This document shows, piece after piece, positions 14,580 to 33,270 of a stretch of 64,000 bases of DNA. The DNA is from a virus (lineage: Duplodnaviria > Caudoviricetes). Position numbers and translations under genes: made by a program. The stretch lies in the IMG/VR virus record IMGVR_UViG_3300021962_000022; one strand, given 5' to 3'. How positions within the stretch are numbered: position 1 is the first letter of the stretch; each line of letters begins with the position of its first letter. Below the pieces are notes generated by a model that saw only the letters and a list, made by a program, of their open reading frames with translations, did no database searches and was not told where the DNA came from.

Positions 14580-15192
14580 CTTCTTCTGTTTCTGGATTAA
14601 ATGTGTCTCTTATTGTATCTCTTGAGTAATCTTCAATATCTTGTTTAGTTAAAACGTACTCGTTTTTACCACTTTGTTGCATTTCACCTTGTTTTTGTGC
14701 AAAGAACTGTTGTGGGTTCATATTAAATGGATATGAGTCTAAAGAACGTAACTCCAATTTCTCTTGTGGGGTTTTTTCTTTCATTGACTCAACTTTGTTT
14801 CCAAGTTCGTCAATTTTATTCATGACTGAGTCCATCTGTGATAACTTTTGTTCCAAATCGTTCAGTTTACTAAAGACTGTCTCCATCTTATCAACAACAG
14901 CGGTGTTGTCAGATTTATTATCATCCAAATCTTTTTTAATTGATTTGGTCATGTTAACTAAATCAGTGATGTCAATTTCTTCAGTATCTGTTGCTGCGGG
15001 TACATCACCCGTTGGTGGTGGAACATCCGCAGGTGGTGGAACATCTGTTGGTGGTACAGCAGGTTCAATTGGCGGTGCATCCATAGGTGGTGGAGGTGGA
15101 ACCTCACCTTGTTCCATCAAAGTTTTTGCATATTTATTAATCGCATTGTATCTTGCGAGTTCTTCCATTAATGATTTTTCTAGTTTTTTCAT
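14563..15192 (-). CDS. Pro-rich coiled-coil protein, probable head-internal/scaffold-like
   Basis: 209 aa; SLMEELARY N-terminus, VPPPPPMDAPP tract, coiled coil. Confidence 0.7.
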   Translation of the reverse strand: MKKLEKSLMEELARYNAINKYAKTLMEQGEVPPPPPMDAPPIEPAVPPTDVPPPADVPPPTGDVPAATDTEEIDITDLVNMTKSIKKDLDDNKSDNTAVVDKMETVFSKLNDLEQKLSQMDSVMNKIDELGNKVESMKEKTPQEKLELRSLDSYPFNMNPQQFFAQKQGEMQQSGKNEYVLTKQDIEDYSRDTIRDTFNPETEEDEFKF

Positions 15193-29597: not shown

Positions 29598-30086
29598 TTA
29601 GTAAACTAATATACATCTATCCATTCTCAATGAACAAGTGATAGATGCAATATCATCTCTTGAATAGTCTAGTTCATTAAAGTTTAAGTCGGTGATAAAA
29701 GTACCTTGAAGTATCCATTTTTCAACCACAACCCCCGTTGGGTCTAACATTTCTAATTCAATGTCTTTTTTATAACCAGCAGCATAACCCATACGACCTG
29801 TAACTGATTCTGCGTGTAAACGGAACCACTCCATTAATGCCTGAGCGGCTGAAGGTCCAATTGGGTCTTTGAAGGTTACTCTTATTTCGTTCCATTCAAA
29901 TCTACCAGCAACATATGTTGATGTGTTGATAAACGGAATCGCAACTGAATTAATTTTTGCACTTGGTCTAGCACTTGAGGTTACATACCATTCGTTGATA
30001 CCCAATGATGAGGGAAATCTTAATATGAATCGGTTAACTCTCTTCGGTTCGTAAGGAACCGGCATTTTCATTAATAAATCTGCCAT
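29598..30086 (-). CDS. Tail tube protein (gp19-like)
   Basis: YEPKRVNRF, AGRFEWNEIRVTF, YKKDIELEMLDPTG..VEKW. Confidence 0.9.
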   Translation of the reverse strand: MADLLMKMPVPYEPKRVNRFILRFPSSLGINEWYVTSSARPSAKINSVAIPFINTSTYVAGRFEWNEIRVTFKDPIGPSAAQALMEWFRLHAESVTGRMGYAAGYKKDIELEMLDPTGVVVEKWILQGTFITDLNFNELDYSRDDIASITCSLRMDRCILVY

Positions 30087-30209
30087 GTCAATATTTGTTT
30101 TTTATTTTTTTTATTGTTAATCTTTCTTATAAATATCCTGTATCTGAAAAAACAAAAAAATCTTGTTCATCCCTTGATTATGTCAAAATAATTTCGTATT
30201 TTTTCCATA

Positions 30210-30305
30210 CTAGTACTAGATGCTAGTAAATATAGAACTAGATTAAATAAACTAGAATAACTAGAATCAAATAAACTAGAACTAGAATACTGGTGCATAT
30301 ACTGG
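30210..30305. repeat. Cluster of CTAG-core (A/T)ACTAGAA-like short repeats
   Basis: CTAG at 30210, 30216, 30223, 30238, 30252, 30261, 30276, 30282 plus two TACTGG variants; non-coding. Confidence 0.85.
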
Positions 30306-30366
30306 GTAATTTATAATTTTATTTTTTTTATATTTTAATATTTTTCTGTGGAACAAATAATATCAA

Positions 30367-30382
30367 CGTTTCACGTGGAACA
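30367..30382. promoter_or_regulatory. parS-like centromere site
   Basis: Minus strand TGTTCCACGTGAAACG matches the parS consensus TGTTNCACGTGAAACA at 15/16; extra half-site GTGGAACA at 30348-30355. Confidence 0.75.
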
Positions 30383-30383
30383 T

Positions 30384-30407
30384 AAAATAGGGAGGGTTTC
30401 CCCTCCC
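30384..30407 (-). terminator. Terminator after tail sheath gene
   Basis: GGGAGGG-GAAA-CCCTCCC-TATTTTA on minus strand. Confidence 0.85.
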
Positions 30408-30414
30408 CTTTTTA

Positions 30415-33270
30415 TTAGATATTGTCAAATGATGCTCCTGTTGGTGTGATTATGAACTCAACATCGATGAATTCAAGAGCTCTTGTTGGTTTAATATAAA
30501 TTTTACCTCTCAAAGTATTAGCGTCAATGTCCTCAGGGTCGTTTGAAACCGTTACACGGAATTCATATAAACCTCTTTCTCTCTTGATTGCGTCTAATAT
30601 TGGGTTTACCAATCTCAAGAACTCGTTACGAACTTGTTCATCGTTTTGTTCAAATAGTAATCTAACTGCCACCGCTGAAATCAATTTTCTTGCTCTCAAC
30701 AACAATCTTCTTACGTTAATTCTATCCAATGCTGATTCACGAACTTGAAGAGTTTTATTACCCCAAATTATCGTTCCTGTATCTGCGAATGTTGCGATAG
30801 GGTTAATTCGAGCTTTGTATAGGTCATCTCTTTCATCCAAAGTTAATTTCTTGAAAGCTTTGATAGAGTTAACCAAACCTCTTGAGTAACCCGCTACTGC
30901 GAACCAAGGGAAGGATACGTTATCTGTTAATGCGATATTTCTTAATACTTCACCTGTTGGTGGAAGATATAGTTGTACCGCGTTATCCACGTCTCTAACT
31001 TGAATCCAAGGCCAATATGTTGCTGAATAGTTACTATCAATTGCAACTCCGTCCAATGCGTCTATAATTTCGTCAGAAGTACCATAGTTTGGTGGTGATA
31101 TCACATAAAGTGAATCTGCTCTGTCTTCTTCAATCATATCAATTGCGTATGATGTTAAAGAACTATGGTCGTAGAAGTTAATACCCGGTGTTGAGAATAT
31201 ATTGATGTCAACCGCCTCAGGGTTTGCAAAAGTGTCAATACCTTGAGTATATGCGTAGTAGTCAGAGTTTCCTGATACCGTACTAAACACCCCTCCGTTT
31301 GTGGTATTACCACTTGTGTAGGTAGTTTTACCAAAGATATAACCATCACCGTAAGTTCTTACGTTTCTGTAGATATCCCATCCATCAAATCCACCACCTG
31401 CGGCGAATGTGAATTTACGGTAGTTGATGTTTGTTAAAACGTTGTTTGCTCCACCTGTTTGACCTTCTAAATCATATGATGTAGTTAAGAAGGTAGTACC
31501 TGTGATAGTAGATGCGTTTGTTGATAAGTGGAAACCTTTAGTTGTTCCCGCAGCTCCCGTTCCTTTGAATTTAAATAAATCCCTATCGTATGTTGATTTA
31601 TTAACTGGACTTGATAAACCAAAGTAAACCTTTCTCACTTTATCTCCTGAAGATAAAATAGGTGTTCCGTCCGCTTCGTATCCTGTTGTATCACCCGCGT
31701 CATAGAATTCTGTTTTATACATTACTGAACCTAAAGTTTTAGTTCCAAATGATGTGTTGTTCACAAATCCTTTGAAACCGCCAGGGTATGCATCAATCGG
31801 GTGGTCATTGGCCATCGATAACATAATGTATCTTGAACGTAATTCGTATTCACCATCAGATGTACCAACTTTTTTAGCCACATAACCAGGTAGGTCAGGA
31901 TTCATATTACATCTTGAATATTTTTCAAGAACCACAATATTGTCGTCAGTATCATTGAAGTCACGAACAATTAAGTCGAAGTCACCAGTGTTTACATCTA
32001 TATTGATGATTGAAACTTTTACTTCAAAGTTTGCACTTTCACCATCAGATACGGTGATAACATCAAATAAATCATCAACCTCACCACCTCTAACTTCAGA
32101 AACAACAGTTGGTGTCATTGGTGTATCCCATGAGGTTAAGAAGTTGTTACCTTCTGTTTCATATACTTCAGTTAAACTTAAACCTCTAATGTATCCTTGT
32201 TCATATGCTCTTACGAGATAATTTGGATATGATTCATAAACATAAATTGGAACTTCACTTTTTAGTTTGTCATAAACATCAACCCCAAATACTTTAGTTA
32301 CATATTTTGAAGATGTGGTATCCATACTACAAGTGAATGACTTAGCACCACTTGTTGAACCTGTAACACCTACGGTAAACTCAGCTAATGGGTTTGTGGT
32401 GATACCTGTTCCTGTAATTTGGAAATTAACGTCTGTGGTTGTTTCTAAATTTAATGTTTGACCATTATAAGAACCTCTTGGTCTAAACGCTAAAACTATT
32501 TGTCCATCGTATGCAGTATTCAATGTACCGTTATATGTGTATTTGGTTACATTGAATCTACTTGTACCACTATTGTAAACAAATAAGTAAGAATAAACTT
32601 CTGAACCACTTGTGTTACAAAGTACGTTGTACCATTCTTTGTTATTGTTGTTACTTGCATTATCTAAACCTGTCAAAGGTGAAATTTCTTCAATTGATGC
32701 CGTTTGACCACTTGTTCCTGATGTTGGTACTTCACCCATAACAAACCATTGACCATGGTTTGCAGAAGTGTTACCACTAAAATTCGCAACAATGTAGTCG
32801 GTGATGTAGTTACCATCAACTGATATCTTATTAGATAATTCACTATAAATTGTACTTGCAGTAATCGTAGTGGTTGTTGCTGACATTGTTAATCCGGTGG
32901 TTGTTCCACTGAATGTACCTAAAGTCACACCACCTATTGTTTGTATACCGAATGTTTTAACTGGTTTGTAACCTGTTAAACCTAAAATTCTTGTAACAAA
33001 TAATTGATTAGATTCTTCTAAATAAGATTTTGCGAAGTACGGTAATTCATATCTTGGGTTGTTATTGTTGTCCTTTAGTGGACTTGTTCCCCCAAAATAT
33101 GACTTGAATTCGTCAAAATTTGTTATTAATACAGGTTCAAAAGCGGGACCTTTTAAGGTTTCACCCACCAAACCTAACGTGCTTACCCCAACACTTTGTG
33201 CTACGAATGTTAAGTCTTTTTCAGATGTATATACACCCGGAGATACAAATACTCTATTTGAATTTGCCAT
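30415..33270 (-). CDS. Contractile tail sheath protein (gp18-like)
   Basis: FVSPGVYTSEKD N-terminus; WFAVAGYSRG, RINPIA, IWGNKT, INVRRLL C-terminal motifs. Confidence 0.95.
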   Translation of the reverse strand: MANSNRVFVSPGVYTSEKDLTFVAQSVGVSTLGLVGETLKGPAFEPVLITNFDEFKSYFGGTSPLKDNNNNPRYELPYFAKSYLEESNQLFVTRILGLTGYKPVKTFGIQTIGGVTLGTFSGTTTGLTMSATTTTITASTIYSELSNKISVDGNYITDYIVANFSGNTSANHGQWFVMGEVPTSGTSGQTASIEEISPLTGLDNASNNNNKEWYNVLCNTSGSEVYSYLFVYNSGTSRFNVTKYTYNGTLNTAYDGQIVLAFRPRGSYNGQTLNLETTTDVNFQITGTGITTNPLAEFTVGVTGSTSGAKSFTCSMDTTSSKYVTKVFGVDVYDKLKSEVPIYVYESYPNYLVRAYEQGYIRGLSLTEVYETEGNNFLTSWDTPMTPTVVSEVRGGEVDDLFDVITVSDGESANFEVKVSIINIDVNTGDFDLIVRDFNDTDDNIVVLEKYSRCNMNPDLPGYVAKKVGTSDGEYELRSRYIMLSMANDHPIDAYPGGFKGFVNNTSFGTKTLGSVMYKTEFYDAGDTTGYEADGTPILSSGDKVRKVYFGLSSPVNKSTYDRDLFKFKGTGAAGTTKGFHLSTNASTITGTTFLTTSYDLEGQTGGANNVLTNINYRKFTFAAGGGFDGWDIYRNVRTYGDGYIFGKTTYTSGNTTNGGVFSTVSGNSDYYAYTQGIDTFANPEAVDINIFSTPGINFYDHSSLTSYAIDMIEEDRADSLYVISPPNYGTSDEIIDALDGVAIDSNYSATYWPWIQVRDVDNAVQLYLPPTGEVLRNIALTDNVSFPWFAVAGYSRGLVNSIKAFKKLTLDERDDLYKARINPIATFADTGTIIWGNKTLQVRESALDRINVRRLLLRARKLISAVAVRLLFEQNDEQVRNEFLRLVNPILDAIKRERGLYEFRVTVSNDPEDIDANTLRGKIYIKPTRALEFIDVEFIITPTGASFDNI

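Follow-up and report, generated by a model that had tools for sequence, protein, structure and literature searches.

We identified a 16-bp palindrome of the bacterial chromosomal parS type in the gap between the tail-sheath and tail-tube genes of a T4-like jumbo phage, and sequence comparison with its relatives and likely hosts makes it probable, at a moderate level of confidence, that this palindrome is a functional parS read by the ParB of the host in a phage that has no partition protein of its own. The site lies in the window, the 64,000-nucleotide stretch of DNA that was analyzed, which is contained in a 115.8-kb viral contig (G000, an IMG/VR record with an estimated completeness of 38%). 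Allowing at most 1 mismatch, neither the window nor the rest of the contig contains another parS match, and 0.0066 such matches are expected per 64 kb at the base composition of the window. The coordinates of the palindrome and of the features around it are given in Table 1.

Table 1. Features of the sheath-tube gap and the 2 genes that border it (window coordinates)
Feature	Position	Strand	Remarks
parS-type palindrome, 16 bp	30367..30382		minus strand TGTTCCACGTGAAACG, 15/16 to TGTTNCACGTGAAACA
Extra parS arm TGTTCCAC, includes half-parS heptamer GTTCCAC	30348..30355	-	downstream of the full site when read with tail transcription
Bidirectional intrinsic terminator of the tail-sheath transcript	30389..30408		G+C-rich hairpin, A-run before, T-run after
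Pure A/T tract, from parS-like site to CCAGTAT element	30307..30345
CCCAGTAT element, then irregular C[CT]AG[TA]A[TC]-type array (CTAG core)	30205..30306	-
Late-promoter-like motif TATTTATA	30128..30135	-	precedes the tube start codon by about 40 nt
Tail sheath gene, 951 aa, upstream neighbor	30415..33270	-	Phage_sheath_1 and Phage_sheath_1C
Tail tube gene, 162 aa, T4 gp19-like, downstream neighbor	29598..30086	-	Phage_T4_gp19 match below the Pfam cut-off

The palindrome and its surroundings

The palindrome reads CGTTTCACGTGGAACA on the plus strand and TGTTCCACGTGAAACG on the minus strand, the latter being the coding strand of the adjoining tail genes, and it departs from the parS consensus TGTTNCACGTGAAACA at a single position. 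The letters bear out the first-pass annotation, which had reported a 15/16 parS match on the minus strand, an extra half-site close by, and a non-coding location, here a 328-bp gap between the tail-sheath and the gp19-like tail-tube genes. The second arm, GTGGAACA on the plus strand and TGTTCCAC on the minus strand, is 27 nt from the full site. We found 10 other copies of TGTTCCAC in the contig, and because all of them lie within coding DNA, TGTTCCAC was rejected as a repeated regulatory motif. Most of these coding copies fall in Asp-Val-Pro-Pro repeat proteins. Repeats of this type were seen in 2 proteins, where they are encoded by GATGTTCCACC (window positions 15018-15096 and G000:C1:88459-88525).

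Along the direction of transcription, the gap is composed of the sheath stop codon, the terminator hairpin, the palindrome, the A/T tract with the second arm, CCCAGTAT with the CTAG array, and GGATATTTATAAG, which stands about 40 nt before the tube ATG. By this layout, the palindrome lies right behind the sheath terminator and about 230 nt upstream of the proximal promoter of the tube gene. The terminator hairpin, 6 nt from the parS-like site, was scored as a terminator on both strands, and its sequence varies among relatives with compensating changes. The A/T-rich spacer measures 30-34 nt in most relatives, with TATAA-like boxes, and about 60 nt in the lineage of the window, where it contains the extra arm. 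Units of the CTAG array often form the palindrome CCAGTATACTGG and are found in the same place in loci L004-L083; the CCCAGTAT/CTAG array is unique in the contig. The motif TATTTATA has 22 copies in the contig, 17 of them at most 60 nt upstream of a gene start and in sense orientation, and looks like the late-promoter motif of the phage. TATTTATA is also the reverse complement of the T4 late-promoter motif TATAAATA (examples at 30128-30135, 28603+, 33270+, and 45134+).

The palindrome directly follows the terminator in most relatives, a position that would suit an RNA or DNA hairpin serving as the second stem of the terminator module or as an RNA processing signal, and some arm changes are compensatory (TGTTCT..AGAACA, TGTTTC..GAAACA). 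We consider such a hairpin very improbable. The predicted fold is weak (-3.2 and -3.3 kcal/mol, z -0.8 and -1.3), is not better than that of shuffled sequences, and has neither a G+C-rich stem nor a T-run. Further, positions 5/12 show C-G, T-A, C-A, and T-G, so that mismatches occur on either strand, the extra half-sites are found in direct as well as inverted orientation, and an Rfam search returned only sub-threshold noise.

The first-pass annotation had also placed the site beside origin-like repeats; the CCAGTAT/CTAG repeats are real, and any origin role of theirs is putative. In such an origin, the palindrome would be the binding site, joined to an A/T unwinding tract and an iteron-like CTAG array and read by an initiator or DnaA-like protein. 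The succession of palindrome, 33-39-nt pure A/T tract, and at least 8 CTAG-core repeats recalls iteron origins, the gap is among the largest ORF-free ones in the tail-gene block of the window, and, in our own comparison, TGTTCCACA agrees at 8/9 positions with TTWTNCACA, which we take to be the relaxed DnaA-box consensus. However, an overlap of the 2 inverted 9-mers would be at odds with DnaA, and the cumulative GC skew has no turn at 30 kb and its minimum near 40-42 kb. The array is kept without the palindrome in some lineages (e.g., L029-L034, L039, and L045-L058), the palindrome without the array in others, and no initiator gene was linked to the palindrome. An origin is improbable as the explanation of the site, although it is compatible with a parS that adjoins an origin and is only partly a rival. 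A subclade of the parS-less relatives (L039, L045-L047, L050, L051, L055, L056, and L058) carries a conserved CCAAAAGTAAAAATTGAGATGACA between the terminator and CCCAGTAT.

Conservation and loss of the palindrome among relatives

At least 597 tube-protein relatives were found in IMG/VR, of which 80 were fetched and 63 distinct sheath-tube gaps were compared. In 44 of the 63 gaps we identified a palindrome that differs from TGTTYCACGTGRAACA at no more than 3 positions and lies 234 to 338 nt upstream of the tube ATG; 4 of these were perfect (TGTTCCACGTGGAACA), 10 had 1 mismatch, 22 had 2, and 8 had 3. Sites with at most 1 mismatch were accordingly present in 14 distinct relatives (22%), and 19 gaps had no site, whereas none of 1715 random 414-nt windows from the same loci, used as a background control, had a site with at most 1 mismatch. 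The first-pass annotation had staked its reading on the presence of the site at the syntenic position in relatives, and there it was kept in those 44.

In a tree of the tube gene, the palindrome occurred in every major clade and its absence required about 5 changes, most simply explained as about 5 losses. Sites with at most 1 mismatch were spread over at least 7 subclades, each with a different single deviation, and the flanking non-coding DNA was unalignable between subclades, which together describes star-like variation around the parS consensus. Judged by this pattern, the palindrome is under purifying selection around 1 consensus, which is parS itself. A chance match, or a neutral relic without function, has almost no credibility beside these data. 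It could appeal to the fact that the site was first picked for its likeness to parS, with the multiple testing of a large scan, and to the several lineages that lost the palindrome, but the expectation of 0.0066 matches per window and the conservation across the clade amid unalignable non-coding flanks speak against it.

The closest relatives carry the perfect TGTTCCACGTGGAACA, and 16/16 matches to TGTTYCACGTGRAACA were found in L005-L011, L093, and L295. The perfect 16-mer persists where the terminator is absent (L093), where the spacer is 6 nt long (L295), and where CCAGTAT is replaced (L011), and the palindrome therefore behaves as an autonomous unit. It is also dispensable, as follows from the 5 or so losses and from L028, a close relative in which the palindrome has decayed to TGTTTTATGTTGAATA with the remainder of the gap intact. 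No parS was found elsewhere in the site-less lineages, whose records are 24-59% complete. One of the parS-less relatives (G219) has 2 identical copies of TGATTCACTTGAAACA 1.4 kb apart (C1:153647-153662 and C1:155078-155093), which points to a repeated element. Of 40 distinct loci, 7 had further exact half-site heptamers, direct or inverted, no more than 60 nt from the site, against about 2 expected. A scan of viral contigs for the palindrome together with CCAGWAT returned only sheath-tube gaps of the clade, the other matches being unrelated coding sequences or other parS sites.

The relation to the CCAGTAT element raises an alternative in which another dimeric DNA-binding protein, a transcription factor of phage or host, uses the palindrome as its operator and controls a promoter in the A/T spacer with a start near CCAGTAT, the likeness of the palindrome to parS being coincidental. 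We rate this as possible but unlikely. In 28 of 33 distinct loci, 30-34 nt separate the palindrome from CCAG[TA]AT despite divergent spacer sequence, the spacer holds TATAA-like and TTATA-N6 boxes, and, if transcription starts at CCAG, the dyad center would fall near -41, the position of a class II activator. The arms are better conserved than the central 4 nt, as in 5-4-5 sites of the CRP/FNR type, and the extra half-sites turn over. The distance from CCAG to the tube ATG ranges from 185 to 291 nt. However, perfect or near-perfect sites also occur at spacings of 6 (L295), 23, and about 60 nt (window, L005-L010) and without CCAGTAT (L011), and the consensus of the clade is exactly the 16-bp host parS, for which the chance with an arbitrary 16-bp palindrome is about 3 in 65,536 by our own calculation. 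The identical 16-mer recurs in unrelated phages, and no candidate regulator was identified. A spacing of 30-34 nt to CCAGTAT is not expected of a pure clamp-loading site. Bound ParB could itself act on a neighboring promoter, so the fixed spacing modifies the reading as a host-ParB site more than it replaces it; in P. aeruginosa, an action of ParB on a neighboring promoter is reported for parS3 and parS4 (10.1101/151340).

Fit of the variation to ParB binding

We compared the phage alleles with the parS sites known to be bound by ParB. The 10 natural parS sites of P. aeruginosa, which include TGTTCCACGTGGAACA, …GGAACC, TGTTCCACGAGGAACG, and CGTTCCACGTGGAAGA, are all bound by ParB in vitro, and changes in the CACGTG core lower the affinity of that ParB (PMC4368675). 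P. aeruginosa ParB recognizes half-sites as well, namely the heptamers GTTCCAC and GTTTCAC (PMC10419367). The phage alleles are of the same kinds as these natural variants. Their changes concentrate at positions 9, 10, and 16, which we counted against the ParB reading; position 10 is the partner of the specificity-determining adenine by which parS differs from the Noc site (PMC7383237). The small share of distinct relatives within 1 mismatch (22%) and the losses of the site weigh against the ParB reading as well. The left arm of the palindrome is better conserved than the right, an asymmetry left unexplained by a symmetric ParB dimer. With the changes at positions 9, 10, and 16 and the better-conserved left arm, many lineages would carry weak sites.

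Copy number and search for a phage-encoded reader

The core GTTCCACGTGGAAC was found once each in G002 (310 kb, 100% complete with direct terminal repeats), G001 (288 kb, 92% complete), and G003, and further matches to relaxed patterns in these 3 genomes were only at the level of the reversed control. A six-frame HMM search of G000-G003 identified no ParB_N domain (PF02195) above the cut-off and no HTH_ParB, KorB, or ParA-type ATPase; the families searched were PF02195, PF17762, PF08535, and PF13614, and the named control genomes were matched in every search. This agrees with the first-pass annotation, which had seen no parA or parB in the window, since the contig containing it has neither a ParB_N domain nor a ParA match. 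The scan of the larger relatives for parS and parAB that it had proposed gave a single-copy palindrome and no parAB family above the cut-off.

The only trace of ParB_N was a match of 15 bits in a 251-aa GmrSD_N-like (DUF262) ORF (L085:958-1713 in G001, also in G003). This ORF is absent from the complete G002, which bears a perfect palindrome, and it was rejected as the phage reader for that reason. Together with the HMM negatives, G002 argues that the reader of the palindrome is not a recognizable phage ParB. A self-encoded ParA-ParB-parS cassette would have parA and parB on the same element, and neither was found in G000-G003; the single copy per genome, without a KorB or HTH_ParB gene, differs from a global operator system of the KorB/OB type.

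Phage DNA modification could block ParB. A thymidylate-synthase-family gene is present in G001 and absent from G002; in G001 the thymidylate-synthase match falls in 2 pieces within one 442-aa open frame (G001:C1:171332-172636; L217, L218), a split suggestive of an insertion within the enzyme.

Likely hosts and their parS

All 4 phage genomes (G000-G003) encode the ribosomal protein bS21, which in G000 lies about 4 kb past the end of the window (G000:C1:80962-81120). Freshwater bS21 phages were described by Chen et al., whose prediction of Bacteroidetes as the hosts drew on a Flavobacterium CRISPR spacer and on the affiliations of phage genes (PMC9723584), and we group the present phages with them on the basis of bS21, freshwater origin, a size of about 300 kb, and myovirus tail genes. 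The phage collection gave no DNA match, and the best protein match to a cultured phage was 36% (Microcystis phage Mel-JY01), so no host could be transferred from cultured relatives. SD-like motifs precede only 6 of 98 genes, and TAnnTTTG was seen at some early-looking genes. A PhoH protein 86% identical to that of the phage (window 51185-51982) is encoded on a 3.8-kb contig (CAZUUI010000215.1, locus L210) of an uncultured Chitinophagaceae MAG; this contig is probably phage DNA that was binned with its host or by composition, and it gives a weak hint of the host. From the bS21 kinship, the PhoH contig, and the near absence of SD motifs, the host phylum of the phage is likely Bacteroidota.

In the Chitinophagaceae-linked family to which the PhoH MAG belongs, 12 of 15 genomes have exactly TGTTCCACGTGGAACA in 1 or 2 copies, and the control pattern was found in 0. 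Of 201 genomes sampled across Bacteroidota, 137 have TGTTYCACGTGRAACA (TGTTNCACGTGNAACA) in 1-5 clustered copies, with the control pattern in 1 genome; the N positions of TGTTNCACGTGNAACA are C/T and G/A in all matches listed. A canonical ParB of about 300 aa was present once in each of the 3 genomes of the Chitinophagaceae-linked family that were checked. Judged by the Bacteroidota counts, the phage carries the parS of the phylum that is its likely host, and in its closest relatives the agreement extends to every letter. The comparison with the parS of candidate hosts proposed by the first-pass annotation therefore came out in its favor, the TGTTCCACGTGGAACA of the closest relatives being identical to the Bacteroidota parS.

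The same 16-mer in other viruses

We searched IMG/VR for exact copies of TGTTCCACGTGGAACA and found them in at least 120 contigs, as against 3 for the same letters reversed. Among the matches listed, 2 of 120 belong to the sheath-tube clade, and the other contigs (loci L219-L337) range in G+C content from 23% to 71% and include many unrelated phages. In these, TGTTCCACGTGGAACA adjoins a portal gene (L222, L275), follows a prohead-protease gene and a 307-aa ORF (L251), or overlaps the start of a 5'-3' exonuclease gene (L236), and several sites in unrelated phages stand directly after a terminator T-run. Among these contigs there may be prophage flanks, or phage-plasmids that encode a ParB themselves. 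A tblastn search with 2 Bacteroidota ParBs found no ParB in the retrieved flanks of TGTTCCACGTGGAACA in the other viral contigs, a search that would miss divergent ParBs. The recurrence of the same 16-mer in unrelated viruses points to a universal host protein as the common reader.

A probable loading site for host ParB

If the palindrome is a host-ParB loading site, dimers of host ParB would bind it after injection or replication and would bind the adjacent arm more weakly. The bound ParB would then close into CTP-dependent clamps and slide onto the flanking phage DNA, and the sheath terminator just upstream would shield the loading site from the heavy late transcription that heads towards it. 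As for the benefit, our first preference is that the genome of about 300 kb would be coupled to the ParABS/SMC machinery of the host and so be positioned, or be inherited when infection stalls in slow-growing cells, a non-sporulating counterpart of the phi29 strategy. Our second preference is that the site would act locally to control the promoter-like A/T spacer together with the CCAGTAT/CTAG module fixed 33 nt away, and the third is a titration of ParB.

A bolder proposal, which we put forward as doubtful, is that the infection cycle throughout the clade makes use of host ParB. The ParB clamp would either tie the 300-kb genome to ParA/SMC, and so keep it and pass it on in slowly dividing, non-sporulating cells as a carrier state, or slide into the CCAGTAT/CTAG module and the late genes for sheath and tube and act there as a mobile regulator resembling KorB on RK2, and the borrowing of a host centromere would be general. 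If this is true, the viral excess of at least 40-fold of the exact 16-mer would mark a general and largely unrecognized phage strategy.

Implications

The experimental record of orphan host-type parS sites on virulent phages is confined to phi29-like phages, where the context is spore entrapment. The present clade consists of widespread and abundant freshwater T4-like phages with genomes of about 300 kb, and well beyond Bacillus the positioning, persistence, or gene control of phage genomes may involve host ParB and, by way of ParB, also ParA or SMC. The site offers a testable handle, being a single stretch of 16 bp for which close relatives naturally have strong, weak, or null alleles. The excess of the exact 16-mer in IMG/VR over a composition-matched control, at least 40-fold, suggests a general phenomenon that is open to systematic survey, and the parS variant carried by a phage could aid host prediction.

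Comparison with known systems

We found no description in the literature of a host-type parS on jumbo or T4-like phages or on phages of Bacteroidota. The first-pass annotation had regarded the arrangement as undescribed for T4-like jumbo phages, which stands in the literature searched, but the principle itself is known from phi29 (PMC2731898). The novelty lies in a T4-like jumbo lineage, in hosts of a non-sporulating phylum, and in a position that is fixed. The virulent Bacillus phage phi29 has 5 host-type parS sites and enlists the Spo0J of its host to bring the phage genome into the prespore (Meijer et al. 2005, as summarized in PMC2731898). The phage studied here resembles phi29 and Nf in carrying a host-type parS on a virulent phage without its own ParB, and the phi29 and Nf sites are bound by host Spo0J (PMC2731898). 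The phage phi29 is a 19-kb podovirus with 5 sites, spore entrapment, and a sporulating Firmicute as host (PMC2731898), whereas we describe a T4-like myovirus of about 300 kb on non-sporulating Bacteroidota, with 1 fixed sheath-tube site, putative ParB binding, and, in most lineages, a coupling of the site to a CCAGTAT/CTAG module that sets it apart from phi29.

Bacterial chromosomal parS sites (TGTTNCACGTGAAACA; P. aeruginosa parS1-10, PMC4368675) share the 16-bp palindrome and the tolerance of C/T at position 5, and they show similar weaker variants (…GGAACC, …CGAGGAAC…) and additional GTTCCAC half-sites. Unlike them, the viral site is single and stands away from a chromosomal origin or parAB operon, not in an origin-proximal cluster. 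A further likeness is to SGI1, a mobile element with a cis site only that is reported to parasitize the ParA/ParB of an IncC plasmid (PMC10954446). SGI1 is an integrative island, and its use of a plasmid-type par system is reported as shown experimentally (PMC10954446), whereas here the element is a phage, the system chromosomal, and the use putative.

The KorB/OB operators of the IncP plasmid RK2 are similar in that a ParB-family protein reads a palindrome of 13-16 bp and affects neighboring promoters. RK2 has its own ParB-family protein and many operator copies, unlike the phage, in which we found 1 copy and no KorB/HTH_ParB gene. The plasmid prophages P1 and N15 likewise bear a centromere on a phage genome; they are temperate, encode their own ParA/ParB (SopA/SopB), and have unrelated parS sequences.
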